Below are positions 2,807 through 53,061 of a DNA stretch of 64,000 nt, piece after piece; position 1 is the stretch's first letter, and each line of letters begins with the position of its first letter. Location of the stretch: contig OZ076409.1 in the NCBI GenBank assembly GCA_964187785.1, positions 38,008,001-38,072,000 of the forward strand. Direction: 5' to 3'. This stretch comes from Amphiscolops sp. MND2022. Taxonomy: Eukaryota. The notes below the pieces were generated by a model. That model was not told the DNA's origin, did no database searches, and was given only the letters and a program-made list of their open reading frames with translations. The translations under genes and the position numbers were made by a program.

Positions 2807-2853
2807 GTGTTAGCCTTCCAAGTTGGCCGAAGGCCAACTTGGAAGGCTATCAC
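2807..2853. other. Long internal palindrome/hairpin (22-bp stem with one mismatch, GAA loop)
   Basis: GTGTTAGCCTTCCAAGTTGGCC-GAA-GGCCAACTTGGAAGGCTATCAC. Copies or variants at 7704-7750, 13659-13706, 18575-18621, 24521-24567, 29413-29459, 34311-34357, 38596-38643, 48076-48123, 53462-53509 and 60423-60470. Confidence 0.9.
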
Positions 2854-26500: not shown

Positions 26501-28417
26501 CCTTATGGTCGGAGACCGTAGAGACCGTTGTTGGCGAGCAAATAAGCTTTTTGTAAGTCCGAGTCGCCTAAAAAAATGGTAAGTAACACATGTAAGCACT
26601 TTTATCATTCCCTGTAGCAACTAGTGAAAACTTTTTATCACTATTCGGTAGGCCAGTGGGCCACGTTTACTTTCCAAAAGATGACCCATGTTGCTATCTG
26701 TACTCTGTCAGGAGATATACATACCCGAAAAGTAGTTACGATGTGACAACATAACTCTCTATAACACTCGGACTCACCTAAAAATTCCAAAATTTTTCAG
26801 AAGCACTCTACAAGTGTACTGATGGGTTTTTGGGCGTCACCATAGCACACTGACACTTTTTGACCTTATGGTTCAAGACCGTACGGACCGTTGGTGGAGC
26901 AGAAATGGGACTTTTGTAGGTCCGAGTCGTGCAAAAAAATGCTAAATACCCCATATTGGCATATTGTGCACGCCGTGCAGCAGTGACTGAAAACTTTTTA
27001 TGACCAATCGATAGACCAGTGGCCCACGTTCTTTTTCGAAAAGGTGACCCATGATGCTATCTGTACTCTGTCAGGAGATATGCATACCGGAAATGTTGTT
27101 GCGATGTGACAGTATAACTCTCGGACCCACGTAAAAATCCGATATTCTTTCAGAAGCTTCCTACAAGTGTTCTGATGGGTTTTTGGGCGCCACCATGTCA
27201 CACTGACAATTTTTGACCTTATGGTCCTAGACCGTTCGGACCGTTCCTGAAGAGAAAATCACCTTTTTGTAACTGCGAGTCGACATGAAAAATTGAAAAC
27301 AACACTTCTGAAAATTTTTTTCTTTCACTATGGCAACTAAGGTATATTTTTTGCACTCAATCGTTAGACCGCTGCCCAATGTTCATTTTGATAAAGATGA
27401 CCAACGGTGCTATCTGCACCCGGTTATGAGTAACATGATTATGAAATGTTCATACAACGTAACAGATCAACTCGGACCGTGACTCAAAAAAATCAATTTT
27501 TTTCAGAGGCCTCCTAGAGGTCTACCGATGTCATTTTGGTCGTCACCATAAGTCACTGACAATTTTTCACCTTATGGTCCGAGACCGTGCGGACCGTTCC
27601 TCCTGGTCAAATCATCAATTTTGTAATGGTGATACTGTTAGAAAAAACCTTTTGGCACTTTTGGCCACTTTAATAGGGCCCGAGGGCAAAATTTTTTTGG
27701 ACCGTTCGGTAGACCGTTGGCCGTTGATGATTTTGCAAAAAGTGCACATTGCCGCTATATGCGTTGCTTCATGCTGAAAATGGACTTTGAATATGTGAGT
27801 GATAAATCACCTTGAATCAAAAAACCCGAAATATTGCAAATATAGGTTGAAGATGCAATTTTTCGGAAAAACGTCAGAAGAAAAAAGTTCTTAGAATTTG
27901 TTCTACTACCTGTGTGCCAAGTTTCAACGCAATCCGCGGACTTTTTAATTTTTTGTCATTTTTGAAACAAATGTTGGCCAAATATGTGCAAATTTTCGTA
28001 TTCGGTAAATTTTCCGGCCAAATTATCCGCCATATCTCCACTCCTGTTGCGAATTGAGAAATAATTTTTTGCATGTGTGAACATGACATCATAACTGCCT
28101 TGCACGCAAAAAATGGGCCAAATGCATAGCGTAAAGTGTGGAGCTATTGTGTGAAAAATGCGAAAAAGTACCAAAAAACACGATCATTTGCACATAACTT
28201 TTCAACAAATGTTTCAATGATGATACGTCAGGGGAAAAAAGTTCTTATAATTTGATTTTAGGTATGTGTGCAAAGTTTTATTAAAATCGTATGGTTAGAT
28301 TCCAAAATCGCCGAAATCCGACCCGGTGGACTAGTGATGTATTTTGGATAATGCGCTCGGCTCCGGGACCCTCCCCGGCCTCGCAAAAGTTCATGTGGGG
28401 GACCACCCCGGACCACC
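23525..28417. mobile_element. U8: family A2 unit, 4,893 bp
   Basis: Colinear with A1 but clearly diverged throughout; closest to U9. Confidence 0.8.
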
Positions 28418-31400
28418 CAGTGGAGGCGAGGTTGTTGCAGTTGCACTGCCGAGATGCGAGGAAAATGTGTATTAAAAACATAAAAATTTTCATAATTAAA
28501 ATTTTCGTTTTCCCTTCTGTTGACAAAAGTAGTCTTTGTTGTGTTCAACTTATTTCATACTTGTCATCCCCACGACACGTGGTGCCTTACAGGGCGACTT
28601 GTCATTTATTTTCCATCATTCTGCAAGCCAAAGCGAGTTCCTGCTGAGTAACAGCAATGTTCTACTTTAACAATTTACAAAGAAAAGTGAAAGAGTTTCA
28701 ACATTAGAAGTCTATGTTCATTAGAGTGATTAATCCCTTATAAACACTAATAACACTCCAAATAGGGGACGTAGCAGCCTCGTTACGTGAATTTGGGCAG
28801 AGACAATTTCAAAAAAGAACGCTCTGTTATGACCGAGCTGAGATGCGAAAATGACGTGACTGGCTGATTCCAAATTAGGAAATTATACACCATCGGACAC
28901 AAAAGTTTTTGTGGAAGAAATTGATTGGTGAAAATTATTGAGGTATTTTTGTGTGCCATGTGTTTGCCCCAAATCATTTTCAGTTGGAATAGATATTGTT
29001 CGTAGTATTGAACCTTTCCTACCACAATTGGCTGACTTAATAACATTAGCAATGCATACACTCCATTTCGTTTTTTTTTGGCCCTATGTCACCACTGTGA
29101 AATACATCAACGTATGATGTAACGTACTGTCTAGTGGAGGGGTAGAGGATTTGGTGGAGCCAATAAGGGTAGACACTCACTGGTAAATAGAATGTACGTT
29201 CCACATACAATTCATATGTTTCAAGTTAGTTTTTATGGTATTTTTAAGCGACACAATGAAAGATGTTTTTATGGAACTCAATTATGATCTCCTTATAGCG
29301 AATGGAAATGATTATGTTCTGAATTTATCAATTAACGTGAGAAAAGAAAGTTGAATGAAACTGTCCACAGCTATTTTGAGAATAAAGGAACTCCTGTTTT
29401 TTGGTATTTGGAGTGCTAGCCTTCCAAGTTGGCCGAAGGCCAACTTGGAAGGCTATCACGAAATTTTTTTATAAGTTCTTTATAAAAATGCTATATTCAG
29501 TTATAATGTCTTTATAAAAATGCAAATCAGATCTATATAGTCTGCAAAATCCAAGTACTGAAAGACGTATTGAGAAGTTTGTTAGCTTTTGTAAAATTGA
29601 TTCAGTCTTTGCTAATTTATCTTTTAATGAACATTGCGTTGTAAAACATATGAATCTTTTCAGCCGTAACAAAGGATTTTGGAACAACAGAAAGATCGTG
29701 CACTTTGAAACATATGCACAGTTGAATAATCGTACTAAATTGAACTGCTCATTGATGTTTACACTATCAAATTTTTGTCATAGAGTCCAAAAAGTACAGT
29801 GAAAAATGCGCAGTACTTTGGAAAGTTTTGTGTTACACAATGCTTTATGCGCCACATTTTTCCCATACACCGCTGTATAGACCTCATATTAGCAACACTG
29901 ATAGTATATCAATAGTATTTGACGGGAAATAAGTTACTTTTTATGAATTTTGTTTTTATTATGACAATGTGTCTTCAAAATTTTAACTTAAAAGTTGAAT
30001 TTTTCTTTGCAAAACGTGTTATCGTGGCTCACATGTCAATGAAGCATTTGATACCAGTCATATATCTGTTTTTCAGTATTTTGGAGGCCACAGGTTACGT
30101 CAGACACAATAATGTTGTTCAAAACACGGGAAATCAATTTTCGACCTGACAAAAATTGGGTTTTTGGGGAAAAAATTTGCTTGTTAACAACGAATGGGAT
30201 GAAAAACCTGTCCAGACCGAGCATGGTTGTATTATAAAAACTTTTTATAACTATAAACGAGTTGTTTGTTGTCAGTGAGGTTGTTGTTGAGCGTTAATAC
30301 CATAACCGACAAGGACCGATTAAAAAAGGCACAATGGAACGTGACAAATAACTGGAATTTTTGGGAAATATCTCCTGTCATCACTACTTTTGACATGTCG
30401 AAATTCCTTGCAATGATTTTTCAAGTCTGGTATCCACCTTGGTTGATCCTAAGGTTTAGTGGCAGACCAAAAACAGTATTGGTGGGACCGCCGATACCAA
30501 AAAAATGCTGACACATCGGGAAAAATACTGAAGTTGAAGTCATGCGTCTCTTCAGTATGATATTTTTAGCTACCTCAGACCCTGAAATATAACCTTAAAA
30601 GTTCGGTAAACACCCTTTTCCTATATTACAGGGCCAGTGGTTTGCTGTGAAAGCCAAAAGTTGCTGATAAACCTCCATTTTGCTAGTTTGATTCCAACAA
30701 TATTGTGATGTGTTATCAATTTTAGACAAATTTCACTACTGATTTGTAAATATTGTTGCCCATGACTGCTCGATTTATAGTGTATGTGGATTGTCAATGC
30801 CTAGTTGTGTTTTTCACATGCCACTGGACTTAGAGAAGTGGATAATTGATGTGTGTGGGCAGAAATTGGCGGTCGTATACGTCAAAAAATGATTTGGAAA
30901 CAAACTTTATCTTGGAATTTTGTTTGTCAACGGGGCTTTTGTCACTCAAAATCGTAATGTAACCATTGCAGAAGATCAATATGCGTTCAACGTCAGCTGT
31001 ACACGTGGTTGTGAACAAAAAAGGGTCTTGATTGACTGAAAAATCATTTAAGCTATTTTTCACTCAACCCATATATTGATATGTGCGGTATGATTTTCTG
31101 ATGTGTAACGTCCAATGGCAGCTGATTTTTTCAAAATGACCCCAAACCCACAGTGGGCACTTTTTTCATGTTATTCACATCCCATGTTATGCAAAACAAC
31201 ATTTTATGTGGCTATTGTGCTTTAAAAACTAATTTCGGGCACTCAAAAACATAATTTTGTTGGAAAAATAACACGGTTCGCCATGTAATATCTAACATAG
31301 TGAACTGGAAAAAAACAAATTTTTTCAGAAACATCCTACAGGTAAACTGATGGGTTCCTGGGCGTCACCATAGCTCACAAAACTTTTTTGACCTTATGGT

Positions 31401-33313
31401 CGGAGACCGTAGAGACCGTTGTTGGCGAGCAAATGAGCATTTTGTAAGTCCGAGTCGCCCGAAAAAATGCTAAGTAACCCATGTAAGCACTTTGATCATT
31501 CCATGCAGCAACTAGTGAAAACTTTTTATCACCATAGGGTAAGCCAGTGGCCCACGTTTATTTTCCAAAAGGTGACCCATGTTGTTATCTGTACTCTGTC
31601 AGGAGATATACATACCCGAAATGTAGTTACGATGTGACATCATAACTCTCTATAACTCGTGGACTCACCTGAAATTACCAAATTTTTTCAGAAGCACTCT
31701 ACAAGTGTACTGATGGGTTTTTGGGCGTCATCATAGCACACTGACATTTTTAGACCTTATTGTTGAAGACCGTGCGGACCGTTGTTGGAGCAGAAGTAGG
31801 CTTTTTGTAGGTCCGAGTCGTGCAAAAAAATGCTAAATACCACATCTTGGCATATTATTCACGCCATGCAGCACCTATAGGAAACTTTTGATACCCATTC
31901 GATAGACCAGTGGCCCACGTTCATTTTGGAAAAGATGACCCATGATGCTATCTGTACTCTGTCAGGAGATATGCATACCCGAAATGTTGTTACGATGTGT
32001 CGGTATAACTCTCGGACCCACGTAAAAATCCGATATTCTTTCAGAAGCATCCTACAAGTGTTGTGATGGGTTTTTGGGCGCCACCATGTCACACTGACAA
32101 TTTTTGACCTTATGGTCCTAGACCGTTCGGACCGTTCCTGAAGAGAAAATCACCTTTTTGTAACTGCGAGTCGACATGAAAAATCGAAAACAACACTTCT
32201 GAGAATTTTTTTCTTTCACAATAGCAACTAAGGTATATTTTTGGCACTCAATCGTTAGACCGCTGCCCAATGTTCATTTTGATAAAGATGACCCACGGTG
32301 CTATCTGTACTCGGTTATGAGTAACATGATTATGAAATGTTCATACAACGTAACAGATCAACTCGGACCGTGACTCAAAAGAATCAAATTTTTCCAGAGG
32401 CCTCTTAGAGGTCAACCAATGTCATTTTGGTCGTCACCATAACTCACTGACACTTTTTTACCTTATGGTCCGAGACCGTGCGGACCGTTCCTCCTGATCA
32501 AATCATCAATTTTGTAATGGTGATACTGTTGGAAAAAAGCTTTTGGCACTTTTGACCACTTTCATTGGGCCCGAGGGCAAAATTTTTTTGGACCGTTCGG
32601 TAGACCATTGGCCGTTGATGATTTTGCAATATGTGCACATTGCCGGTATCTGCGTTGCTTCATGCTGAAAATGGACTTTGAATATGTGAGTGATAAATCA
32701 TCTTAAATCAATAAATCCGAAATATTGCAAATATAGGTTGAAGATGCAATTTTTCGGAAAAACGTCAGAGAGAAAAAGTTCTTAGAATTTGTTCAACTAC
32801 CTGTGTGCCAAGTTTCAACGCAATCCGCGGACTTTTTAATTTTTCTCATTTTTCAAACAAATGTTGGGCAAATATGTGCAAATTTTCGTAATCATGAAAT
32901 TTTCCGCCACTATTATCCGCCATATCTCCACTCCTGTTGCGAATTGAGAAACAATTTTTGGCATGTGTAAACATGACATCATTTATGCCGCGCACGCAAA
33001 AAAAGGGCCAAATGCATAGCGTAAAGTGTGGAGCTACTGTGTGAAAAATGCGAAAAATGACCAAAAAACACGATCATTTGCACATAACTTTTCAACAAAT
33101 GTTTCAATCATGATACGTCAGGGGAAAAAAGTTCTTATAATTTGATTTTAGGTATGTGTGCAAAGTTTTATTAAAATCGTATGGTTAGTTTCCAAAATCG
33201 ACCAAAAGTGACCCCGGTGGACTAGTGATGTATTTTGGATAATGCGCTCGGCAAACGGGACCCTCCCCGGCCTCGCAAAGTTTCTTGTGGGGCAAAAACA
33301 GCCCCGGACCACC
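28418..33313. mobile_element. U9: family A2 unit, 4,896 bp
   Basis: Near-identical to U8 over the first ~3 kb and more divergent on the right; ends GGGGCAAAAACAGCCCCGGACCACC. Confidence 0.8.
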
Positions 33314-36300
33314 CAGTGGAGGCGAGGTTGTTGCAGTTACACTGCCGAGATGCGAGGAAAATGTGTATAGAAAGATAAGAATTTTCAACAATAAAATTTT
33401 CGTTTTCCGTTCTGCTGACAAAAGTAGTCTTTGTTGTGTTCAACGTATTTCATATTTGGCATCTCCACGACACGTGGTGCCTTACAATGCTACTTGTCAC
33501 TTATTATCCATCAATCTGCAAGCCAACGCGACGTTTCTGCTGAATAAAAGCGATGTTCTACTCTAACAATTTACAAAGAAAAGTGGAAGAGTTTCAACAT
33601 TAGAAGTAATTGTTCATTACAGTGATTAATGCCTTATAATCTCCAATAACACTCCAAATAGTGAACGTAACTGCCTCGTTATGTGGAAATGGGTGAAGAG
33701 AATTGTAAAAAAGAAAGCTCTGTTGTGACCGAGCTGAGATGCGAAGATGACGGGACTGGCGAATTCCAAATATTGAAATTATTCACTATCGTACAGAAAA
33801 ATTTTTGTGGAAGGAATTGACTGCTGGAAATTTTTGAAGTATTTTTGTGTGCCATGTGTTTGCCCAAATAATTTTCAGCTAGGATAGATTTATTCCGTAG
33901 TTTTGAACCTTTCCTATCACAAGTGGCTGACTTAAATGCATTAGAAATAAATACACTCCAACTCCATTTCCTTTTTTTGCCCTATGTCCCCACTGTGGAA
34001 GACATCAACGTATGATGTAACGTACTGTCTGGTGGAGGGGTAGAGGATTTCGTGGAACCAATAGGGGCAGCCACTCATTGGTTAGATAAATGTACGTTCC
34101 ACATACAATTCATATGTTTCAAGTTAGTTTTTATGGTATTTTTAAGCGTCACAAGGAAAGATTCATTTTTTGAACACAATGGTGGTCATCGTATAGCGAA
34201 TAGAAATGCTCATGTCCTGAATTTATCAATTAACGTGAGAAAAGAAAGTTCAATGAAAGTTTCCGCGCCTATTTTGAGATTAAAGGAACTCCTGGTTTTT
34301 GGTGTTTGTAGTGTTAGCCTTCCAAGTTGGCCGAAGGCCAACTTGGAAGGCTATCACGAAAATTTTTTATAAACTCTTTATAAAAATGCAAGATTCAGTT
34401 ATAAAGTCTTTATAAAAATGCAAATCAAATCTATATATTCTGCGAAATCAAAGTACTGAAAGACGTATTGAGAATTTGATTACCTGCTGTGAAGTTGATT
34501 CGGTCTTTGCTAATGTATCTTTTAATGAACATTGCGTTGTAAAACATATGACACTTTTCAGCCCTAACAAAGGAGTTTGGAACAACAGAAAGATCGTGCA
34601 CTTTGAAAAAGATACACAGTTGATAAACCGTACCTAATTGAACTGCTCATTGATGTTTACACCATCAAATTTTTGAGTTAGAGCGCAAAAAAACCGTGAC
34701 AAATTCTCAGTACTTTGGTAAACTTTGTGTTACACAATGCTTTATGCGCCATATTTTTCCCATACACCCCTGTATGGACCTCATATTCGCAACAATGATA
34801 CTATAATAATAGTAATTGACGGGAATTTGGTTAGATTGTTATATATTCTGTTTCTATTGTGAAAATGTGTCTTCGAAATTTCCAGTTGAAAGTTGAATTT
34901 TTCTTTGCAAAACGTGTTATCGTGGCTCACATGTCACTGAAGCATTTGATACCAGTCATATATCTCTTTTTCAATATTTTGGAGGCCACAGGTTACGCCA
35001 GACACAATAATGTTGTTCAAAACACGAGAAATCAGTTTTCGACCTGACAAAAATTGGGTTATTGGGGAAAAAATTTTCATTGTTACGAACGAATGGGATA
35101 AAAAATGTGTCCAGACCAAGCATGGTTGTATTATAAACACTTTTAATGACTATAAACGAGTTGTTTGTTGTCAGTGAGGTCGTTGTTGAGCGTTAATACC
35201 ATAACCGACAAGCACCGATTAAAAAACGTGGAATGGAATATGACACATACCATGATTTTTTGAGAAGTTTCTCTTCTTATCAGTACTTTTGACATGACGA
35301 AAGTCCTTGCATTGATTATACAAGTCTCATATACATCTTGGTTGAGCCTCGGGTTTAGTTTTAGACCAAAAACAGTGTTGGTAGGACCGCTGATACCAAA
35401 AAAGTGGTGACACAACCGGAAAAATTCCGATGTTTAAGTCATATGTCTATTCAGTATGATATTTTTATGTACCTCAGATTCTGAAAAAGTAGCATGAAAC
35501 TACTGTAGACCGTATTTTCCTAAGTAACAGTGCCACTGAGTTGCACTAAAAGCCTATAGTTGCTGCAGAAGCTCCAATTTGTCATTTCGAGTCCACCAAA
35601 AATGTGATGTTGTATCAATTTTCAACAAAATTTGCTATCGATTAGCGAATATTGTGGCACATGACTACTCGAAGTAAGGTCCTTGTGCCTTGTCAATGCC
35701 CAGTTGTATTTTTCACAAGCCACTGGGCCAAGAGAAGTGGATATTTGATGGTTGTCGGCTAAAAATGGCGTTCCTATACTTCAAAAAATGATTTGGAAAG
35801 CAATTTCATCTTGGAATTTTGTTTGTCAACGAGGCTTTTGTACCTCAAAATTGCAGTATAACCATTGTGGAAGGTCAAAATAGGTTCGACGTCAGCAGTA
35901 CACTTGGTTGTGAACAAAAAAGAGTCTTGATTGACTGAAAAAGAACTTTAGCTGTTTTTGACTCAACCCATGAATCGATATGTAAGGTACGATTTTCTGT
36001 AATGTAACGTCTAATGGCAGCTGATTTTTTCGACATAACTCCAAATCCACAGTGAGCACTTTCTTCACGTTACTCACACCCCATGTTATGCAAAAGTACA
36101 TTTTAGATGGCTACTGGGCTTTACAAACAGTTTTTGGGCACTCAAAAACATCATTTTGGAGAGAAAAAAACACGGTTCCCAATGTAATATGTAACATAGT
36201 CTGCACGAAAACACTAAATTTTTACAGAATCATCCCACAAGTAAACTGATGGGTTTTTGAGCGTCACCATAGCCCACAAAAAATTTTCGACCCATTGAGT

Positions 36301-38207
36301 GGAGACCGTAGAGACCGTTGTTGGCGAGCAAATGAGCTTTTTGTAAGTCCGAGTCGCCTGAAAAAATGCTATGTAACCCATGTAAGCACTTTTATCACTC
36401 CCTGTAGCAACTGGTGAAAACTTTTTATCACCATTTGGTAGGCCAGTGGCCGACGTTCACTTTCCAAGAGTTGACCCATGTTGGTATCTGTACTCTGTCA
36501 GGAGATATACATTCCCGAAATGTAGTTTCGATGTGACAACATAACTCTCCATAACTCTCGGACTCACCTAAAAAATCCAAAGTTTTTCAGAAGCACTCTA
36601 CAAGTGTACTGATAGGTTTTTGGGCGTCACCATAGCACAATGACACTTTTTGACCTTATGGTCGAAGACCGTACGGACCGTTGGTGGAGCAGAAATGGGC
36701 CTTTGGTAGGTCCGAGTCGTGCAAAAAAATGCTAAATACCGCATATAGGCATATTATTCACGCCGTGCAGCACTGACTGAAAACTTTTCATGACCAATCG
36801 ATAGACCAGTGGCCCACGTTCTTTTTCGAAAAGGTGACCCATGATGCTATCTGTACTCTGTGAGGAGATATGCATACCCGAAATGTACTTACGATGTGAC
36901 ACTATAACTCTCGGACCCACGTGAAAATTCGAAAATCGTTCAGACGCTTCCTACCAGTGTTCTGATGTGTTTTTGGGCGCCACCATGTTACACTGACAAA
37001 TTTTTATCTTATGGTACCAGACCGTTCGGACCGTTGCTGAAGAGAAAATCACATTTTTGTAACTGCGAGTCGACATGAAAAATTGAAAACAACACTTCCG
37101 AAAATTTTTTTCTTTCACTATGGCAGCTATAGTATATTTTTTGCACTCAATCGTTAGACCGCTGCCCAACGTTCATTTTGATAAAGATGACCCACGGTGC
37201 TATCTGTACTCGGTTATGAGTAACATGATTATGAAATGTTGATACAACGTAACAGATCAACTCGGACCGTGACTCAAAAAAATCAAATTTTTCCAGAGGC
37301 CTCTTAGAGGTCAACCGATGTCATTTTAGTTGTCACCATAACTCACTGACACTTTTTTACCTTATGGTCCGAGACCGTGCGGACCGTTCCTCCTGGTCAA
37401 ATCATCAATTTTGTAATGGTGATACTATTGGAAAAAACCTTTTGCCACTTTTGACCACTTTGATTGGGCCCGAGGGGAAAATTTTTTCGGACCGTTCGGT
37501 AGACCGTTGGCCGTTGATGATTTTGCAATATGTGCACATTGGCGGTATCTGCATTGCTTCATGCTGATAATGGACTTTGAATATGTGAGTGATAAATCAC
37601 CTTGAATCACAAAACCCGAAATATTGCAAATATAGGTTGAAGATGCAATTTTTCGGAAAAACGTCAGGAGAAAAAAGTTCTTAAAATTTGTTCTACTACC
37701 TGTGTGCCAAGTTTCAACGCAATCCGCGGACCTTTTGATTTTTCTCATTTTTGAAACAAATGTTGGCCAAATATGTGCAAATTTTCGTATTCGTTAAATT
37801 TTCCGCCACTATTATCCGCCATATCTCCACTCCTGTTGCGAATTGAGAAACAATTTTTGGCATGTGTAAACGTGACATCATTTATGCCTCGCACGCAAAA
37901 ATTGGGCCAAATGCATAGCGTAAAGTGTGGAGCTGCTGCGTGAAAAATGCGAAAAATGGCCAAAAAACACGATCATTTGCACATAACTTTCCAACAAATG
38001 TTTCAATCATGATACGTCAGGGGGAAAAAGTTCTTAGAATTTAATTCTATGTCTGTGTGCAAAGTTTCATGGAAATCTAACGGTTAGATTGGAAAATCGC
38101 TTGTTTTTCTCCCGGTCTACCATGGATGCATTTTGTATATAGCGCTCGGCTCCGGGACCCTCCCCAGGCCTCGCAATAGTTCTTGTGGGGGACCACCCCG
38201 GACCACC
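33314..38207. mobile_element. U10: family A1 unit, 4,894 bp
   Basis: Colinear and near-identical with U2. Confidence 0.8.
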
Positions 38208-40185
38208 TAGCTGCTACCGCGCTAACGCGTATATTTGGCATACGTCGTCGAAGGGCATGCCTCGGCATGCCCACGGACGGTGGACGTCGCAACACTATGT
38301 GGCGTTGTACTAATGACAGACAGCGTGGCTGTAAGATGTTCATGGGCCTAAAAACAGTAGAAAAACAAAAAATACAAACGTTAAAGACTCAATTTCAAAT
38401 AATTTCGATGTTTTTGATGACTTGTTATAGCGAAAAATATCTAAATGTGCTTGGAGTTCATAGGTTTTTATCAAAGACTGAATGCTATCATTAGCTGACA
38501 TCATGGAAGGTACCAACGTTGGACAGAATCACAAAAATAACTATCGAAAGCTATACCCTGTAAACAAAACGTACTTTTGTTTATAGTTTTTTGATGTGAT
38601 AGCCTTCACAAGTTGACACAAGGCCAACTTAAAAGGCTATCACAAGATACAGTTAACAGCTACATGTGAACTAAGCAAAAAATGAGCAGCCTAGATCGCA
38701 GAAAGAGCACATGTGATCCTTGTGAACAGTATTTTCAATCATCTTGGGTCCGTAAGGTGGCGTTAGAAGTATTTAAAGATATATTGGTTACAATACTTTT
38801 AATTCTATCTTAGCAAAATAGCGTATTTTTTAGCTTCAGGTTTTTTTAATGATACAAATGGGACACATGCGAAGGGATATTTATTGAAAAACATAAGAGT
38901 TGAGAGTTTCTGATCAACCACAATGTTCAATTATATTCTAAGAAGTGAATTAAGTATCGGAAAGTATTTTTTAAGTTTGCTTTGTGAGATATTGGGCGAA
39001 AAGTTATTCAAAAAAGCAGTAGTATATGAGACAAAAGTGTCTCATACCATGCCTTGAGCAATCCGATTCCTTCAAAATCCCCATAGTAGTGCTGAAACTC
39101 ACCGTACGCATTCTGTGTACATAGTGATTGACAAAAAAGAATAAATTTTTGTTCAAATCAACATTCACTGTGATTCAAGGGTTCCGAGATGTTTACTTCA
39201 TATGAACAGTTTTGTTAAAAATAACGTCTTATCGCGGCTCATATGTTATTGGAGTCACTGATACCAGTCTCAATGGTGTTGTTGAGTATCATTGGCCCCA
39301 CTGGTTACGTCAGAGTGCATATTTGTGCTTCAAAAGCTGAATTTCAAATTTCGACCTGACGAAAAATGGGTTTTTGAGACGAAATTTTTCTAAGTTAAGT
39401 TCCGAATGACTGAAAAATGACTGAAGACCGGGTGAAAATATTTTTTTAAAACTTTCTATTACTATAAATGGTTCCTACGTTGCCAGTGGGACCGTTCTAG
39501 AACATTAAGGCTATAGCCGACAAGCCTCGATGAAAATCTTGTGTTCAAAATGACCATTTTGTAAATTAATACTAAGTTGAGAAATCCTTGTGAAACGCTT
39601 ATGACCCAGAAAAAATTTTTATTTTAACATTGGATGCAAACTGTTGGGTGTTTGGCTGCGAGTAGGTTCCGACAGAAACCATGGATACCAAGGTTTCCAA
39701 GTTAAAGCAAATAAAAATTATTTTCTGAGGTGTTTTTGACATATATGGTACTGATAGTAGTGAAAAAAATTTCAAAAATCTCAAATTTTCAAAAAATGTA
39801 AAAACTTTACATCTTTTGTGTTCAGTGCAATGCCACAGCCACGAAATGAAGGTTCCAAGCTTGTTTCACAGTCAATTTCCAAAAATTATTGCGTTTTGAG
39901 ATATTTGCCCTTTTATGAAAAATTTCATCATTTTTACATCTAATGGGGACCAAAAATTGGCCATAACTTTTTTTATAATGTTTTTAGGGCTTAACGTCAG
40001 CAGGAACTTCGTCTCGTATGGGCAAATTAGGGCCGCATGCAAAAAATGAGAAGAATCGTACGGTTAGATTTTAAAATCGGCTGTTGAGGGTGTGCTTTTT
40101 CTTATAAGCGTTAGCTGTTTTGGGAGTTCGCGGCAGGACCCTACCCGCCGCTCTAGTTTTTTTTGGGGTGAAATCCCCGCCCACC
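38208..40185. mobile_element. U11: family D unit, 1,978 bp
   Basis: Starts TAGCTGCTACCGCG, ends GGGGTGAAATCCCCGCCCACC; colinear with U17; retains the long internal hairpin and a diverged copy of the A/B core. Confidence 0.8.
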
Positions 40186-41116
40186 TAGCCGCTACCGCCG
40201 TAAAGACGGCGGGCATGGCTCCATTTGCCATACGTCGTCGAAGGGCATGCCTCGGCATGCCCACAGACTGTGGGCGTCGGAACGCTATGTGGCGTTGTAC
40301 TAATGGAGACATGTGATATGGTAACGGATATGTGTATTGGTTGAAATAGTAGTGAGAAGAACAAAAGACTTCATCAAACTCAATGAAATATAAAAATCTT
40401 ATACGGTTGTTTATTCAAAATTCTAAACACGTGTTAAGATAGTTAATTTCGTCGGGAGTGTGATCTTTCGATGACATTTATTTAGCAAACGTAACTTCAC
40501 GTCATCTCTGAGAAGGGGATAGAATGCAGGTACTCAACGACATTTTAAAAAAACCAAAAAACAAAAGACTTGTGTGTAAATTCTATCATAACAACTCGAA
40601 TACCCCTCGACATATACACTAAGCGAACGCCACCAAGGGACACCACACATACATGTTCCAAACAAGCCTACTGTCCTTTCTGAACGCTTTCCACGGCGTT
40701 ATTCATATAAAATGTACTTGTTTTGTACTATTGTATTCACATATCAAACTATTCTCAAATGATCATTACTCAACCTCATGTTAGGATAAAGGAGAGTTTT
40801 ACACGTTATTTACCTCATCTAATAAGGTGCATTTCGCAGTCATTCACTTGCTATCTTAGTTATGTGGACGTTTCATCATTTCGGAAGGCCGGAAAATTAT
40901 GAACAAAGTAGTAAACGTTTTCAGTCATGCCTTTGATCACTGGGTAAAACAATCGATCTTAACTCCGGTAAAAGAGTCGAATGGTTTTGTTCAGCAGAAA
41001 TAGAAGCTGAAGTAAAGACTCATGTATGTACCAGAAACAATTTTATTCCTTCTTCGTTTCAGGAGTTACATACAAAGTTACAAAAGTTTGAATGTTGGAC
41101 GTATTTGGCTTCTCGA

Positions 41117-41159
41117 AAGTACATTCTCATCTCCCCCGATGGGGAGATGGAATGTACTT
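41117..41159. other. Long palindrome in U12 (19-bp stem, one bulged T)
   Basis: AAGTACATTC-T-CATCTCCCC-CGAT-GGGGAGATG-GAATGTACTT. Confidence 0.85.
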
Positions 41160-41447
41160 AAGTGTTTCTTGTTATCTGATGGTTAAGATTGGACATATTC
41201 AATTGAGATTTCGATGAAACTAAGGTTCTATTTACGTATCATCACACCTGAACCTTTTAGGAAGCTCACATTCAAAACATCTATTAAATTAATAATCGGT
41301 AATATTAAAAAAATGAACAGGGTATATATCTGAAATGATTCGCTTCTTATATGGAACATGATTATTATTTATGGTATGGAATTCTTGCCAAAAAAGACGT
41401 TTTTTATTATAACCCAAACGATTGGCAGTACCTGGTTTGGTATCATA

Positions 41448-42715
41448 TGGAGTTGATAGAACGCCAAGAAACTGTGGTTTTGATGATTTTTTGACATTTT
41501 GATATTTTAATGTCAATTTTTTCGTGTAATTTTGGCCCATTTTTGATGGATTCAATTTTTTTTATTATCCATCAAAATTTATTCTAAACAAACTTCTGAT
41601 AATCTACAATGGAAGTAGAGTTGATCGGTATGTGACAGCTTTCTGTGTTATTCTCATACAGCAAATGGCATGCATTTGAAATTTAATAGAAAATGGCATG
41701 TTTTTCTTTTCCAAAAATGTCGGTATTTTCACATTTTGCTCAAAGATGGGTAAAACCGGGTTAGGCATACTCTGTGGACCACGTGGAGTTGATAGAACCC
41801 CAAGAAGCCGTGGTTCTGATGATTTTTTGACATTTTAAAATTTTAAGGTCCATTTTTTCGTGTAATTTTGGCCCATTTTAGAAGGAATCAAATTTTTTTA
41901 TTATCCGGTAAAATTAATTCTATACAAAATTCTGTTCATCTGCAATGAAAGTAGAGTTGATTGGTATGTGATAGTTTTCTGTGCTATTTTCATACGGCAA
42001 ATGGCGTGCATTTGAATTTTTTTAGGAAATGGTATGTTTTTCTTTCCCAAAAATGTCGGCTTTTTCACATATTGCTCAAAAACGGGTAAAACCTGTTTTA
42101 GCATACTCTGTGGACCTCGTGGAGTTGATAGAACCCCAAGAAGCTGTTGTTTTGATGATTTTTTGACATTTTAAATTTTTAAGGTCCATTTTTCGTGTAA
42201 TTTTGGCCCATTTTTGAAGGATTCAAATTTTTTTTATTATCCGGTAAAATTTATTCTAAACAAAATTCTGTTCATCTGCAATGAAAGTAGAGTTGATTGG
42301 TATGTGATAGTTTTCTGTGCTATTCTAATACGGCAAATGACGTGCATTTGAATTTTTTTAGGAAATGGTATGTTTTTCTTTCCCAAAAATGTCGGCTTTT
42401 TCACATATTGCTCAAAAACGGGTAAAACCTGTTTTAGCATACTCTGTGGACCACGCGGAGTTGATAGAACCCCAAGAAGCCGTGGTTTTGATGATTTTTT
42501 GACATTTTGGTATTTTAAGGTCAATTTTTTCGTGTAATTTTGGCCCATTTTGGAGGGTTCAAAGTTTTTTTAATATCCATCAAAATTCATTCTAAACAAA
42601 ATTCTAATAATCTACAATGGGAGTAGAGTTGATCGGTAAATGATAGTTTTCTGTGCTTATCTTATACGTCAAATGGGGTGCATTTGAAAATTTTTAGGAA
42701 ATGGTATGATTTTTA
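41448..42715. repeat. 336-bp tandem repeat, about 3.7 copies, inside U12
   Basis: GGAGTTGATAGAAC at 41449, 41785, 42121 and 42457 (exact 336 spacing); copies are alignable throughout. Confidence 0.95.
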
Positions 42716-44945
42716 GGATTTTGGTCAAAATAGTTGGCTTTTTAAATATATTTAAATTGAAAAGATACGGGGTTATTACACAGGTCATATAACCAACTTT
42801 TTGAGAGGAATCCAATGGTGCCATCGAAAAAATTATTTATCAGCTAACATTTTTAGTACTGCCAAAATAACCAAAAAAGGGAACAATTTTTTGATGATTT
42901 TGTGATTTGTTCATCCGGACATGGTTCAAACACCAGTACTAGCATTCTTCGATCATAGTTATTGTTCTTAGACTTCACCCCAACATAAAGATACATTTCA
43001 AAGAGATTTTGAATATTAACTTATTGTGAGAAAGGGTTGAAATATTTGAAGAAGCTAGTAGAAAAGAGGAAGTTTTTGTCTTATATAACACCTTGAGCAA
43101 CCCATATTACGGTAAAGCCTCATTTCATGACTCAAACTAACTTTACAAATTCTGTGTGAATAGTGATTGACAAAAAAGAGTTATTTTTTGATGAAATCAC
43201 TTCTCACGGTGATTAAAAGCTTTCAACATATTTACTTCGGATGAGAGTTTTTTGTGTGAAAAACGTACTATCGTGGTCCATATGTTATTAGGACATATTG
43301 TAGCAGTCTCTTTCTTGTTTTTGAGTAACTTGGGCCCCACTGTTTACTTCAGCGTGGAGGGTATTGCTCCCCAGGCAAAATTTAAAATTTCGACCTGACA
43401 AAAATTGGTTTTCAAGCATAACAATGAAATCTAAATGTTTGTAAATTGACCGCGATCGTATATATAGCGAATGACAGCATTGCGAATGATATTTTCGAAC
43501 TTCTTGGGTAAAATAATGACGTCGGAAGTTGTAAAAACGTTTTTGCTTTGCATCGTTGCATGTCTGTTCGTGCTAAATTTCGTTTTTTTTTGGAGCTACT
43601 GATAACCTTCCTTCCACAAATGTAACGAATGCGAAGGAATTTTTTTAAAAACCAAAAGAATTGAGCATTTCTGATCAACCACAGTGTTCAACTTTATTCT
43701 AATAACTGAATAGAGTAGAAAAATTGTTTTTGTGAAGTTATCTTTCCAAGACAATGGACTGCAAATTTATGGAAATGTAGTAGTATATGGGAAAAAATAG
43801 TCTCATACCACCCCTTGAGCAGCGCGATTACTTCAAAAACCTCATTATAGTCCTGAAACTCACCCTACGCACTCTGTGTACATAGTGATTGACAAAAAAT
43901 AGTAAACTTTTGGTGATATCACATTTCACTGTGATCCCAGGCTTCAGAGATGTTTACTTCGATTTAGAGCGTTTGCTCTGAATAACGTCTTATCGCGGCT
44001 CATATGTTATTGGAGCCACTGATACCAGTCCCAATCGTGTTTTTGAGTATCATGGGCTCCACTGGTTACGCCAGAGTTAATAATTTTGCATTAAAAACTG
44101 AATTTCAAAATTCGACCCTACCAAATATGGGTTTTTGATGCGAAATTTTTCTAAGTTAAGTACCGAATGTCTGAAAAATGACTGAAGACCGGGTGAAAAT
44201 ATTTTTTTAATACTTTCTAATACTAAAAATGGTTCCAACGTTGCCAGTAGGCCCATTCGTGAGCATTAGGGTGGTATCTGACACGCTTCGATGAAAATAA
44301 TGTGTTCAAAATGACCAATTTGTAAATAGATACTAAGTTGAGAAATCCTTGTGAAACACCTATGACCTCGAAAAAAATTATATTTTCACATTGGATGCAA
44401 ACTGTTGAGCGTTTGGCAGCGAGTAGGTACTGACGGAAACCATGGATACCAAGGTTTCTATTTTTAAGCAAATAAAAATTTTTTTCAGAGGCGTTTTTGA
44501 CATATAGTGTACTGATAGTAGTGAAAAAAAATTCAAAAATGTCGAATTTTCAAAAAATGTGAAAACTTTACATCTTTTGTGTTCAGTGCAATGCCACAGC
44601 CACGAAATGACAGTTCCAAGCTTGTTTCACTGTCAAAGTCCAAAAATTATTACATTTTGAGTTATCAGCGACTTTGTTAAAATTTTCCTCATTTTGCCCT
44701 TCTAGGTGAATGACAAATTGGCCATAACTTTTTATAAAGTGTTTCAATCGCAAAACGTCAGCAGGAACTTCGATTCGTATGGCCATTTCATGGCCGCATG
44801 CAATCTAAACCCAAATTCTAACGGTTAAATAAAAAAATAGCTCGTTTGACCGGCCGTTTTCTACTAGGAGGATTTTGATTTTGGACGGCCGGCAGGACCC
44901 AACCCGCCGGCCGTAATTTTTGTTGGGGAATTACCCCCGCCCACC

Positions 44946-46015
44946 TAGCGATGGAGCGATTTAGAGCACTGCTAGGTAGAGGCCTAAACAAAACGGTTGA
45001 AAGTTTGTTACTGAAGTATGACACAAACAAATATCCCACGCTAAATCTTTTGTGTATGTTGTTCACAATTCAACAATAAAAATATCATCACACTGCCGAA
45101 AAAGGACAATGGTGACCTCCGTCACGTCACCAAAGAGGTATGTTGGGTTTTGCGTTCGAAAAAAGCACCGTTGTTCCCGCGAGATGCTGCGCAACTCACG
45201 GAACACCGGTGACAATGAATTTTGCTAGCCGATTTGCAACAACTTAATTAACACTTTGAGGCACTTTTTGGCATACCTTTTGCCCAAGGGATATTTTGCT
45301 TGTTACAGATAGTAAACCCCAGCCCCCTAAGCAGTTTCAAGTTCGCTGCAGCTGCTTCGTGTGCTGCATCAAATGCAACTCAACGTGATGCAATGATTTA
45401 TCATCCGATCAGTCATAATGCCAAAACTCCAAAAAATCAACTTTTTTCTGATGTCTCCTACAGGTGAACGAATTACATTTTTGGAACCTCCATTGGATGC
45501 TGACAATTTTTGAACTTATTGTCCGAGACCGTGCGGACCGTTCCGGCTGCTCAAATCATCAATTTGATCAAAGTGATTCAGTCAAAAAAATATATTTGGC
45601 ACTTTTTGGCACTTTGGTTTCCCCCGGGGGGAAAATTTTTTGGACCGTTCGAAAGACCGTTGACCCTTGATGATTTTCATAAAAGTGCACTTTGCCGCTA
45701 CGGGCTTTCCTTCATGGTGAAAATGGCCTTTGATTCGGTCATTGATTAATCAAAGATGAAAAAAGATGAAAAAAACCAAAAAAACGCAAAAAAACCCTAC
45801 AAAATGAATTTTCCTGGAAAAACGTCAGCAGAAAAAAGTTCTTAAATTTTTGAGATAAAGCCACATGCAAAGTTTCAGACAAATCCTACGGGTGAATTTC
45901 GAGATCGGTTAAAATACTTCGCAATCCTGAAGGTAGGAATTGATAGAATGTGCTCGGCTCTCGGGACCCTCCCCGGCCTCGCAATATTTTCTGATGGGCA
46001 TCCCCCTTGACCACC
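44946..46015. mobile_element. U13: family C unit (diverged left half), 1,070 bp
   Basis: Same termini as U4; left ~480 bp diverged, right half near-identical to U4. Confidence 0.8.
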
Positions 46016-47095
46016 TAGCGATGGAGCGATTTAGAGCACTGCTAGTAAAAGGCCTAAACTTAACAGCGCAACCTTTGCTAATGGAGTATGAAAAAGAAAT
46101 ATTGAGGCTAGCAATTTTTTGTAAGTTATTCTGGGATTGAACGATAATTATCATCACCCTGACGAGTGAATGTCTATGGTGACTGCCGTCAACTTAACTC
46201 AAGGGATTTTGTGGTTTTTTGCTTTCTAAGCAAGCACCGTTGTTCCTGTGAGATGCTGCGCAACTCTCGGAACACCGGTGACAATAAATTTTGCTGAACG
46301 ATTTGCAATAACCTAATCATCACTTTGAGGCATTTTTTGGCACAACTTATGCCCTAGGGCTGTTTTGCTCGATACAGAGGGTAAACCCCAGCCCCATAAT
46401 CAGTTTCAAGTTTGCTGCAGCTGCTTCCTGTGCTGCATCATATCCAACTGAAAGTGATACAATTATTTCTCATCCAATCACTCATAATGACATATACCCC
46501 AAAAAATCAACTTTTTTCTGATGTCTCCTACAGGTGAACGAATTACATTTTTGGAACCCCCATTGGATGCTGACAATTTTTGACCTTATTGTCCGAGACC
46601 GTGCGGACCGTTCCGGCTGCTCAAATCATCAATTTGATCAAAGTGATTCAGTCAAAAAAATAATTTTGGCACTTTTCGGCACTTTGGTTTCCCCCCGGGG
46701 GGGGGGGGGGGAATTTTTTCGGACCGTTCGAAAGACCGTTGACCGTTGATGATTTTTGTAAATGTGCACTTTGCTGCTACGGGCATTCATTCATGCTGAA
46801 AATGGCCTTTGATTCGGTGATTGATTAATCAAAGATGAGAAAGATGAGAAAAAAACCAAAAAAACCCAAAAAAACCCTACAAAATGAATTTTCCTGGAAA
46901 AACGTCAGCAGAAAAAAATTCTTAAATTTTTGAGATAAAGCCACATGCAAAGTTTCAGACAAATCCTACGGGTGAATTTCGAGATCGGTTAAAATACTTC
47001 GCAATCCTGAAGGTAGGAATTGATAGAATGTGCTCGGCTCTCGGGACCCTCCCCGGCCTCGCAATATTTTCTGATGGGCATCCCCCTTGACCACC
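46016..47095. mobile_element. U14: family C unit, 1,080 bp
   Basis: Near-identical to U4; extra length mostly from a G15 run at 46697-46711. Confidence 0.8.
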
Positions 47096-50000
47096 CAGTG
47101 GAGGTAATTAGAGCACGACTAGAGGGGGGGAGGAGGCCTGAACAAATGGAAGAAGGACGTTTGTTAGTAAAGTTTGAAATATTTTGTTGTACTTCCTGCT
47201 ACCTGTTTTGGTTTAAACTGCCATGGAAACAAAGATAAACTTCATCAACACTATGATACAGAAATGACAACCCTGAATGCCGTTAAAACAAAAACAGGGT
47301 ATCCCGAGAATTCCCTTTCAACCAGGCACCGTTCATCTTGATAGATGCTGCGGAACTCGAGGCACTGCTGATAGTGTCTTAAGTGACAATAAAATTTTTC
47401 TACAAATGAATTTGTCACAATTACTGAAGGATTTGCTGAAATGCTTTGTAATATTAGGATAGAATGTGTTGGAAATCAGCTTAGTTTTGTTTCAAAAGAC
47501 TCTATTCAAATCCAGATGATATGTGAGAAGACGTGAGATGTTGACTAAATTTTTGAGTTTAGATTGTAATGGAGAAAAAAATTAAAAAACAAAATTTTGC
47601 CTTGTAACAATTTTTGAAAACTTTTTGTGTTATACGGAACTAATTTTTTGGTGGAACAATTTGCAAACGTACAAAACGTTTACCACGATAATTCACTGCC
47701 TGCAAACGATTTTTAATTGACACTCCTTTCCAGTTTTTTTAGCGCTACCATCCCACGAAAGAAAGCTTTCAACACAAGATGTAACAAATTGTCATTTGGA
47801 GGAGATACGGGGTTTCCTCAAGCTGACAAAGAAGCCAAATGTTAAATTGAGTGGACATTCAATGTACAATTAAGAAATTTAGACTAAATTGTTTCAGGTC
47901 TTTTTTGAAAGACACAAAGAAAAAACGTTGTCTCTGAACTGTATAGTGATAAATATATACGAAAAGATCATCTCAGCTAAATACATATTATCAACTACAA
48001 AGACCATGGATGGTTAGACAATATTCTTTACAGCTACAACGGAAGACGAGGCAGTCTTGTTTTTTGTTTTTTGTAGTGATAGCCTTGCCAAGTTGACACA
48101 AGGCCAACTTGAAAGGCTATCACAAGATTCATGTATCAGCTGTTTCCTAAAAAACATGGTTCAATCTGAATCTTTAAATACGCAAACGTCATCAATGTGG
48201 GAAGGTTTTCAACTCTATAGAGTCTGCAAAGTGCAAGTAGTGAGAGACGTTTCCGGAATTTGGTTTAGCTACTATAAAAATGATTCAGACTTTGCTAATT
48301 TATCTTTTAAAGAACATTGCTTGTAAAACATATGGCTCTATTCAGCAGTAACAAAGGAGTTTGGAACAACGGGAAGAGGGTACCCTTTGAAACATGTCCT
48401 AAGTTGCATACCCCTCCTGAACTGAACTGCTGATTGATGTTTACAGTGTCAACTTTTTGATAAAAAGTGCAAAAAATCTAGTGAAAAATTTTTTGTACTA
48501 TGGTAAGTTTTGTGTTACACAATGCTTTATGTACCACGGTTTTCATATAGACACCTCTATACACCTCATATTCGCTACACTGATACTATGTTCATCGTAA
48601 ATGACGAGAAAAAGGTTAGTTTTTCTTGTATTCTGTTTTTATTGTTAAAATGTGTCTTCGAAATTTTCACTTGAAAATAGAATTTTTCTTTGCAAAACGT
48701 GTTATCGTAGCTCACAAGTCACTGAAGCGTTTGACACCAGTCATATACCTAATTTTTAGCTTTTTGGAGGCCACCGATTACGTCAGACACAATAGTGTTG
48801 TTCAAAACACGAAAATTCAATTTTCGACCTGACAAAAATTGAGTTTTTCGGAAATTTTTTTTTAATCTTGAGAACGAATGGGAGAAAAAATCTGTCGGGA
48901 CCAAGCGTGGTAGTATTAATTATACTTTTTGTAACTGTAAACAAGTTTTCTGCTGCCCGTGAGCTCGTTGTTGAGCGTTAATACCATAACCAACAAACAC
49001 CGAATAAAAAAGGTCCAAGGGAATGTGGCAAAAAACGGAACTTTTTGGGAAATATCTCCTCTAGTGACTACTATTGACATGTCGAACATCTTTGGATTGT
49101 TGTTACAAGTCTGGTTTCTACCTTGGTTGATCCTCGGGTATAGTGTTAGACAAAAAACAGTCTTAGTGAGACCGCCGACACCAAAAAACTGGTGACACAT
49201 CGCTAAAAATGCTGAAATTGGAGTCATGCATCTGTAGAGTATGATACTTTTAGGTACCCCACACTCTGAAAAATGACCTTTTTACTTCTGTAAACATTGT
49301 TTTCCTAAATTACAGTGTCAGTGGGTTGGTGTAAAATTCAATAGTTGCTAAAAGAGCCCATTTTGTCAATTCGACCCCACCAAAAATGTGATGTTGTTTC
49401 AATTTTTGACGAATTTCATTGTTGAAAAGTAAATATTGTTGCCCATGACTACTCGAATTATACTGTATGTGCCTTGTCAAGGCCCAGTTGTATTTTTCAG
49501 ATGCCAATGAACTAAGAGAAGTGGATAGTTGATGTTTGTGGGCAAAAATTTGCGGTACTAAACTCCAAAAAATGATTTGGAAACAAATTTTATCTTGGAA
49601 TTTTGTTTATCAACGGGGTTTTTGTCACTCAAAATCACAGTATAACCATTGTGAAAGGTCAATATGTGTTCCAAGTCAGCTGTACACTTTCTTGTGAACA
49701 AAACAGACACTAGATTGACTGAAAAAACACTTGAAGTTATTTTTGACTCAACCCATCTAACGATATGTAGTTATCATTTTCTGTAATGTAACGTCTAATG
49801 GCAGCTGATTTTTTTGAAAACACTCCAAATCCACAGTGAGCACTTTCTTTACGTTATTCACATCCAATGTTATGCAAAAGAACATTTTAGGTGGCTACTG
49901 GGCTTTAAAAAGGGTTTTTGGCCACTCGAAATCTTGATTTCGTTGATATAAAAACACGGTTCCCAATGTAATATGTAACATAGTGAGCACGAAAAAATTA

Positions 50001-51992: not shown

Positions 51993-53061
51993 TAGCGATG
52001 GAGCGATTTAGAGCACTGCTAGTAAAAGGCCTAAACTTAACAGCGCAACCTTTGCTAATGGAGTATGAAAAAGAAATATTGAGGCTAGCAATTTTTTGTA
52101 AGTTATTCTGGGATTGAACGATAAATATCATCACCCTGACGAGTGAATGTCCATGGTGACTGCCGTCAACTTAACTCAAGGGATTTTGTGGTTTTTGCTT
52201 TCTAAGCAAGCACCGTTGTTCCTGCGAGATGCTGCGCAACTCTCGGAACACCGGTGACAATAAATTTTGCTGATCGATTTGCAATAACCTAATCATCACT
52301 TTGAGGCATTTTTTGGCACAACTTATGCCCTAGGGCTGTTTTGCTCGATACAGAGGGTAAACCCCAGCCCCATAATCAGTTTCAAGTTTGCTGCAGCTGC
52401 TTCCTGTGCTGCATCATATCCAACTGAAAGTGATACAATTATTTCTCATCCAATCACTCATAATGACATATACCCCAAAAAATCAACTTTTTTCTGATGT
52501 CTCCCACAGGTGAACGAATTACATTTTTGGAACCCCCATTGGATGCTGACAATTTTTGACCTTATTGTCCGAGACCGTGCGGACCGTTCCGGCTGCTCAA
52601 ATCATCAATTTGATCAAAGTGATTCAGTCAAAAAAAATATTTTGGCACTTTTCGGCACTTTGGTTTCCCCCGGGGGAAATTTTTTCGGACCGTTCGAAAG
52701 ACCGTTGACCGTTGATGAATTTCACAAAAGTGCACTTTGCCGCTACGGGCTTTCCTTCATGGTGAAAATGGCCTTTGATTCGGTCATTGATTAATCAAAG
52801 ATGAAAAAAGATGAAAAAAAACCAAAAAAACGCAAAAAAACCCTACAAAATGAATTTTCCTGGAAAAACGTCAGCGGAAAAAAATTCTTAAATTTTTGAG
52901 ATAAAGCCACATGCAAAGTTTCAGACAAATCCTACGGGTGAATTTCGAGATCGGTTAAAATACTTCGCAATCCTGAAGGTAGGAATTGATAGAATGTGCT
53001 CGGCTCTCGGGACCCTCCCCGGCCTCGCAATATTTTCTGATGGGCATCCCCCTTGACCACC
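51993..53061. mobile_element. U16: family C unit, 1,069 bp
   Basis: Near-identical to U4/U14. Confidence 0.8.

Follow-up and report, generated by a model that had tools for sequence, protein, structure and literature searches.

The stretch analysed here, called the window, comprises 64,000 nucleotides of the Amphiscolops sp. MND2022 genome (contig OZ076409.1; G000:C1:38,008,001-38,072,000) and consists of a head-to-tail array of 19 non-autonomous units of mixed families, all on one strand. We consider it highly probable that these units are non-autonomous members of a divergent Helitron-like lineage, likely mobilised by the fused Rep-helicase (RepHel) proteins of autonomous partners, and that they insert after CTNG, by strong preference after the CTRG end of a resident member. 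The lineage is apparently an undescribed and unusual branch of the rolling-circle (Helitron-like) transposons.

The ends of the units were fixed by solo copies and read 5'-GTG[GC]...CTRG-3' on the minus strand. Unit U11 (family D, non-autonomous, 1,978 bp, 38207..40184, minus strand) has its 5' GTGG at 40184-40181 and its 3' CTAG at 38210-38207. Four solo copies of U11, 98.0-98.7% identical end to end, have the same ends, and their flanks read CTAG/AT, CTTG/AT, GTCC/TT and CTAG/GT, the slash standing for the element. One U11 solo (L123 flanks; L270-L281) lies within a high-copy tRNA-like short repeat, which has 676 first-look candidates. So that the 5' flank played no part in the selection, a sample was taken from D-type 3' ends followed by a base other than G (52 matches, control 0); this pattern excludes G at position +1, which is present in other solos. 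Among the 49 distinct 3' flanks recovered, 45 were host DNA, with T at +2 in 41 of the 45. We fetched 40 of these D-type loci and detected a 5' end in 19 and none in 21. Five of the 19 were not counted, two of them as continuing arrays and the others as an old junction, a duplicate and a mutated start, and the host 5' flanks of the remaining 14 were CTTG (5), CTAG (3), CTCG (3), GTCC (2) and ACAA (1). CTNG was thus present in 11 of 14 readable host flanks, compared to a background of 0.013. In a second search, for starts preceded by a base other than G, 22 matches were obtained (control 6), and the 20 that were viewed comprised 16 host flanks, three junctions with a changed last base and one internal duplication. 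Empty paralogous sites were found for 4 of 18 solos; in each case the flanks join and nothing is duplicated or lost. The site before insertion is mostly CTNG^NT, with GTCC and YTNA as minor forms, and the CTRG/GT junction between two units is itself a CTNG^NT site.

Other placements of the ends were rejected. CTRG does not belong to the 5' end, since its R base tracks the upstream body and solos show CTTG, CTCG or GTCC at this position. A start at T, with the preceding G assigned to the 3' end, was discarded because A and T also follow CTRG, and a 4-bp target duplication is excluded by the empty sites. In a diverged subfamily (L049, L052, L054, L058, L060), the starts are preceded by similar sequence ending in YTCA; it may be an older family that has another 3' end or target.

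In the window, the junction 8-mer CCAC/C[TC]AG occurs 18 times on the plus strand and never on the minus strand, with 0.72 expected per strand. When cut at this 8-mer, the window yields 17 complete units of 1.0-4.9 kb, which fall into about five end families. The T/C base of the junction tracks the unit on its right (plus strand), indicating that the minus-strand unit reads GTGG...CTRG. The array extends from approximately 37,907,589 to beyond 38,122,000 on C1. No RepHel coding sequence was found in the window (tblastn of RepHel against the 64 kb was empty), and its open reading frames (ORFs) and an Rfam search gave nothing informative.

Across the 1.07-Gb genome, the combination of CTRG, GTG[GC] and the hairpin loop of the 5' end was found at 3,424 places, compared to 2 for the reversed control. 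Arrays range from 8 units (C1:29.53 Mb) to several megabases (C1:70-76 Mb), the extent of the latter being judged from scattered matches. In the array stretches that were fetched, 182 of 186 starts (179 by script and 3 by inspection) directly follow the 3' end of another unit. Three of the other four begin an array in host DNA, and one comes after an 80-bp spacer ending in CTTG. None of the 186 starts interrupts the body of a unit; the 233 complete units contain 757 same-strand and 1,052 opposite-strand internal CTNG.T sites. We infer from these sequences that insertion is targeted to junctions. Copies of a 20,207-bp autonomous element (G000:C1:70,548,465-70,568,671), of which there are eight further ones more than 99% alike, were examined together with the reference. 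Their upstream neighbours were of five kinds among the eight read and their downstream neighbours five different ones among five, and the switch of neighbour falls exactly at the terminal base on both sides. The association of end families exceeds the null by 1.85 bits within a unit, compared to 0.49 bits across a junction.

Only one strand switch was seen: at G000:C1:23,977,277-23,979,644, one array flips orientation inside unit bodies, as in a fold-back type of join. Tail-to-tail insertion at the palindromic CTAG was rejected for this sole inversion, as the break lies inside the bodies. Short foreign spacers were observed between units, one of 80 bp ending in CTTG (G000:C1:38,074,436-38,074,517) and one of 16 bp ending in CTGG (L071, about 1,975-1,990, minus strand). 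Such spacers would be expected from capture by 3' read-through or from insertion just past a 3' end.

An earlier note on this stretch, made from its letters alone, had considered a possibly non-canonical rolling-circle group, to be examined by defining the ends from solo insertions and by looking for an HUH ORF bounded by these termini. The solo insertions gave GTG[GC] and CTRG, and the partners indeed encode an HUH Rep and a Pif1 helicase within the same termini, which supports this reading. The note had named a recombinase, DDE transposase or reverse transcriptase as evidence to the contrary; no such domain was found in the scanned partner ORFs. The target rule CTNG^NT, the separate RepHel clade and the targeting of junctions were not part of the note. 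The partners are 12-20 kb long, share the ends of the units and read from the GTG end to the CTRG end, with RepHel and a second, OB-fold-like (oligonucleotide/oligosaccharide-binding) ORF. Long units between the same junctions contain ORFs of 2,207-2,853 aa on the GTG-to-CTRG strand. These have Helitron_like_N and PIF1 domains, often a C-terminal GIY-YIG domain (fused in 8 of 12 clade proteins scanned) and sometimes an OTU domain, and the Rep motifs TxT, HxH and YxxxY are invariant. A Rep query gave 111 matches in the genome (30-100% identity), mostly inside arrays, and approximately 65 of them have open frames above 2,000 aa by an eye count. Among 13 RepHel loci viewed, seven had junctions on both sides, with the inner 5' boundary of one being uncertain; three had a junction at the 3' side alone, and in the last three none lay within the fetched 20 kb. 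The predicted Rep domain (predicted local distance difference test, pLDDT, 80) has Helraiser (7LCC) as its sole significant structural match (E 1e-7, 15% identity), and sequence searches of the PDB with Rep did not match Helraiser. ORF2 follows RepHel and is about 300-460 aa long; 11 of these proteins align. Foldseek and a language-model atlas point to an RPA/POT1-type, RPA-like OB fold (model pLDDT 77; best E 3e-5, template-modelling score only about 0.25).

Near the N-terminus of two RepHel ORFs (L022:934-9492 and L021:842-9289, both minus strand) there is a stretch xG[IL]ESNPGP, which we take to be a 2A-like motif with the usual Asp replaced by Gly. It is also present in a 283-aa OTU-like ORF (L023:7321-8169, minus strand) and absent from the other RepHels checked.

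In Rep plus helicase trees, the clade lies across a long branch from all references, with an SH-aLRT (approximate likelihood-ratio test) value of 100. The trees (46 rows under LG+G4; 22 rows under a mixture model as a quick tree) are unrooted and carry a long-branch warning. Their references are from a single genome, and a profile of the clade served to select the homologues. Repbase, the HELIANO unclassified set and Paramecium proteins were left out, and the HLE2 subgroups a-d are not all represented. The motif II spacer from EFQ to PHxH is 6-10 residues long, typically ends in GN[LP] and is never 4 residues (88 of 167 proteins, read by pattern). In contrast, it measures 4 residues in the HLE1-type and HLE2-type Helitrons of this genome and in Paramecium Hel01 (one copy, read by eye). 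DUF6570, described as an HLE2 marker in the consulted part of PMC11417382, was detected in none of 12 clade proteins and in all four HLE2-type controls. Terminal inverted repeats were not found in 69 units (mean longest match 5.6, compared to 5.7 in the control). Ordinary Helitrons of the HLE1 and HLE2 types are dispersed through this genome as well (L238-L257); among them, L245 has a weak N-terminal JAB match and L249 is an unplaced long-branch one.

A profile search yielded 323 protein clusters at E<1e-30; at E<0.001 the number rises to 1,560, and ordinary Helitrons may be among the weaker matches. Hagfish is the named source of one cluster of relatives, and GC-rich metagenome contigs supplied others. 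At the 11 metagenome loci, the sequence was too short or had diverged too far for termini to be recognised, so that the ends described are those of the Amphiscolops genome only. No relatives were found among viral contigs, and none in 185,579 prokaryote genomes except on one 2.5-kb contig of a bacterial metagenome-assembled genome (L269), which encodes a relative at 32% identity. Given its short length, this contig may be host DNA binned with the bacterium. Full-text searches of the literature listed no paper on such termini or their arrays; Repbase, subscription journals and bioRxiv supplements lay outside these searches. The unclassified HELIANO elements from polychaetes and sponges, as well as Repbase, could hold members.

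The following mechanism would account for these observations. By analogy with Helraiser (PMC4778049, consulted in part) and IS91 biochemistry, Rep would nick at CTNG^GTG, and the helicase would peel off one strand with the help of the OB protein. A second nick after CTRG would close a circle with a CTRG/GTG joint, and this circle would be strand-transferred into CTNG^NT. Since insertion at a junction leaves two junctions, arrays would grow and stay on one strand. Our best guess is that resident 3' ends are preferred as terminators that are bound or nicked by the transposase, and not for their four letters alone. Tandem junctions in the genome would mimic circle joints.

Several observations weigh against this account. 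The identity of neighbours is non-random (the 0.49 bits mentioned above), one upstream neighbour is common to three of the 20-kb copies, and multi-unit duplications occur in the arrays. The residual link and these duplications indicate that block duplication or read-through also shapes arrays and inflates the junction counts. Because a 5' end escaped detection in more than half of the fetched D-type loci, the tally of flanks favours young copies, and as 11 of the 16 host flanks from the second search end in YTNA, the target rule is relaxed rather than strict. The motif of the second catalytic Tyr is altered in some partners (YLxSY). What family D has in common with the checked autonomous elements is limited to short end segments (47-86 nt, near the 3' end), and mobility is deduced from the genome sequence.

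Arrays could also form without targeting, as rolling-circle read-through concatemers that are subsequently mixed and amplified by homologous recombination or unequal crossing-over. Helitrons in tandem have been described before, with rolling-circle amplification given as their cause (PMC5148889, consulted in part). One-family runs, repeated C-B pairs, the association above null across junctions and some ends that appear swapped between bodies fit such an origin. However, homology-driven integration would join like with like, whereas the neighbours are mostly of other families: each of the nine commonest 3' ends is followed by 6-13 next families, and the other one listed by 5. Moreover, the near-identical 20-kb copies exchange their neighbours exactly at the terminal base on both sides, and an 8-unit multi-family array sits between one host CTAG and TT. 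We consider untargeted formation improbable. We hold it to be still less probable that junctions are targeted by another activity, either the fused GIY-YIG domain cutting them in a homing-like manner or an integron-like recombinase encoded elsewhere, with RepHel only making circles. The frequent C-terminal GIY-YIG domain and the resemblance of the array to a cassette array with a constant core speak for it. On the other hand, four of the 12 clade proteins have no GIY-YIG match, among them that of the recently multiplied 2,207-aa element, and no recombinase, DDE or reverse transcriptase domain was found in the scanned partner ORFs. CTNG^NT is all that solo targets and the junction have in common, and this fits strand transfer by an HUH enzyme.

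Insertion by RepHel at resident ends is partly compatible with the remaining alternative, which is a question of naming: the elements could be atypical members of a catalogued group (HLE1, HLE2, the Paramecium clade, a HELIANO unclassified cluster or a Repbase family), with only their array behaviour being unusual. The 3' CTRG fits CTRR, and OTU, RPA-like and GIY-YIG extras are each described in known elements (PMC11417382, consulted in part). HELIANO, in the part consulted, reports at least four unclassified clusters, with matches in polychaetes and sponges, and the limits of the trees given above leave room for such a placement. We nevertheless regard it as unlikely, since a 5' TC is absent, the target is neither A^T nor T^T, and Helraiser is not matched at the sequence level. 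The absence of terminal inverted repeats and DUF6570 and the longer motif II spacer in all readable proteins argue in the same direction.

The comparison with known systems rests on the parts of the cited sources that were consulted. Like HLE1 and Helraiser (PMC4778049, PMC11417382; PDB 7LCC), the elements have a Y2 HUH Rep fused to a Pif1 helicase, a match to the Rep fold, a 3' CTRR (CTAG/CTGG), no target duplication, an ORF running from the 5' to the 3' end, a candidate RPA-like partner and non-autonomous derivatives. Unlike HLE1, they start with GTG[GC] and two hairpins instead of TC, insert at CTNG^NT instead of A^T, have a longer motif II without RG, are 15% identical to Helraiser and form mixed junction arrays. 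The short hairpin that HLE1 has about 10-12 nt before the 3' end is inconsistent here. In the unrooted trees with references from this genome only, the transposase lies outside both HLE1 and HLE2. With HLE2 (Helitron2, Helentron, FoHeli; PMC11417382, PMC5148889) they share hairpins at the 5' end, OTU in some copies, satellites inside non-autonomous copies and, with FoHeli1/2 (TNAT^A), a target of several bases. In contrast to HLE2, they have no asymmetric terminal inverted repeats, DUF6570 or AP endonuclease match, and the target is not T^T (or T^C). The Paramecium 'third clade' (PMC13085455) likewise has a RepHel outside HLE1 and HLE2, strict orientation, carried satellites and an end tetranucleotide (CCAA) that also occurs in the repeat proposed as its target. 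However, those elements end in CCAA and target telomeric repeats, neither of which was seen in the ends or flanks here, and their motif II spacer has 4 residues, ERGS (read by eye; not in our tree). The elements described here belong to the RepHel superfamily, fall outside HLE1 and HLE2 by the tests that define these groups and are distinct from the Paramecium clade in their ends and motif II.

Regarding the target, the elements work like IS91 (bioRxiv 10.1101/2025.01.24.634351, in the part consulted), also a Y2 HUH system that inserts without duplication beside a tetranucleotide resembling its terminal cleavage site. The IS91 tetranucleotides are CTTG, GTTC, GTCC and CTCG; here we found CTTG, CTCG, CTAG, CTGG and GTCC. 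IS91 is prokaryotic and lacks a helicase, whereas the elements of this eukaryote genome have a fused PIF1 and no IS91-type Pfam match. The shared target rule may be a likeness in working, with no descent implied. Replitrons (PMC10288648, consulted in part) are eukaryotic HUH transposons as well, with ends resembling short direct repeats and orientation-specific insertion 3' of a short target. They differ by a Y1 Rep without helicase and an RG target, and the apparent repeat here consists of the target plus the element's own end.

The earlier note had described folds at the ends of the units and likened them to a Helitron 3' end; the observation was confirmed, with some qualifications. The motifs that it quoted are in place, CGCG-CTAA-CGCG at 38218-38229 as well as the stems of U12 and U17, and the terminal stems of families A, C and E are present as described. 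Compared with shuffles, however, the 3'-terminal stems are significant only for U17 (z -4.8) and U12 (z -2.5), and not for U11 (z -0.9), A (-0.7), E (-1.2) or C (+0.5). The subterminal 3' stem-loop of U11 (38218..38229, minus strand) is short and weak. The 45-mers upstream of junctions had a mean z of -0.34, with z<-2 in 9 of 86 distinct ones (including a few host flanks), compared to 1 of 65 mid-unit controls. A 3' hairpin is thus strong in some D ends and a weaker common feature than the note implied. The palindrome GGGCATGCC-TC-GGCATGCCC, which it had called invariant, is present at 38253-38272 (minus strand, approximately 45-65 nt from the 3' end) and varies genome-wide. Its outer pair was G-C in 150, A-T in 37 and mismatched in 1 of 188 distinct contexts, and this covariation supports a stem. 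The note had every minus-strand junction reading CTGG or CTAG followed by GTGG; this holds in the window, and units elsewhere in the genome begin with GTGG or GTGC.

Of the structures seen, a hairpin at the 5' end that the note had not described is the most consistent. It is common to most families and has the loop G[GT]AGGG.C, found in 57 of 65 representative 5' ends. Its outer arms covary (4.46 pairs, compared to 3.53 +/- 0.10), a score reached by 0 of 1000 shuffles; as the 65 ends are related, this test overstates their independence. In U11 it lies at 40130..40151 (minus strand), subterminal to a first small 5' hairpin (GGGG/CCCC, 40165..40178, minus strand), and may be an origin or a transposase-binding signal.

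The window as a whole (1..64000) is a same-strand segment of a mixed array, and all its units are on the minus strand. U1 (1..1807) is cut by the window edge. U2 (1808..6706, 4,899 bp) has a family-A 3' end and is followed by U3 (family A, 6707..11600, 4,894 bp), U4 (family C, 11601..12671, 1,071 bp), U5 (family B, 12672..17577, 4,906 bp) and U6 (family A, 17578..22475, 4,898 bp). U7 (22476..23523, 1,048 bp) belongs to family E, and over its first 600 nt it matches the 5' ends of two autonomous elements at 87-89%. Three family-A units come next, U8 (23524..28416, 4,893 bp), U9 (28417..33312, 4,896 bp) and U10 (33313..38206, 4,894 bp). The 3' end of U11 and the 5' end of U10 meet in the junction CTAG/GTGG at 38203..38210 (minus strand). 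U12 (40185..44944, 4,760 bp) has a family-D 3' end and an internal 336-bp tandem repeat. Then follow two family-C units, U13 (44945..46014, 1,070 bp) and U14 (46015..47094, 1,080 bp), U15 (family B, 47095..51991, 4,897 bp), U16 (family C, 51992..53060, 1,069 bp), U17 (family D, 53061..55049, 1,989 bp) and U18 (family B, 55050..59429, 4,380 bp). U19 (59430..64000), with a family-B 3' end, is cut by the other window edge.

Tandem repeats inside the units have periods of 363 bp in the 4.9-kb units (e.g. 26425-27416) and 336 bp in U12 (41448-42714), and they resemble the satellites carried by other Helitron-derived elements. In the fetched arrays, the lengths of the 233 complete units fall into narrow classes (about 1.03-1.08, 1.26-1.31, 1.39, 1.96-2.02, 3.07 and 4.76-4.94 kb), which recur in families with a likeness of only about 80%; common ancestry or a limit on size may account for this.

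Taken further, the elements may represent a fourth deep RepHel lineage, widespread in eukaryotes, with IS91-style tetranucleotide targeting directed to the 3' terminus of its own members. Megabase cassette arrays of an integron-like kind would then be used and extended jointly by dozens of unrelated active families, as a safe harbour of their own making, with cargo of up to 20 kb placed at one defined base by an HUH enzyme alone. We judge the chances of this wider picture to be evenly balanced.

Nearly every unit begins directly after the final four letters of another member, likely because the enzyme targets that spot. Thousands of copies form long mixed arrays in this genome rather than scattering through host genes. 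Descriptions of Helitrons give their target as a preferred dinucleotide, and runaway rolling-circle replication is the usual explanation for tandem copies. In this genome, a single terminal code is common to many divergent families, whose members insert at one base of each other's ends. Software that relies on TC or inverted repeats as terminal signals would overlook these elements or misplace their boundaries, and it would take several megabases for satellite. Many intact, near-identical autonomous copies are available for cloning, and direct tests become possible of how RepHel recognises its target, how Helitron arrays arise and whether the old analogy between IS91 and Helitrons holds. If homing on the resident end is true, the system would be a natural site-specific integrator for large cargo.

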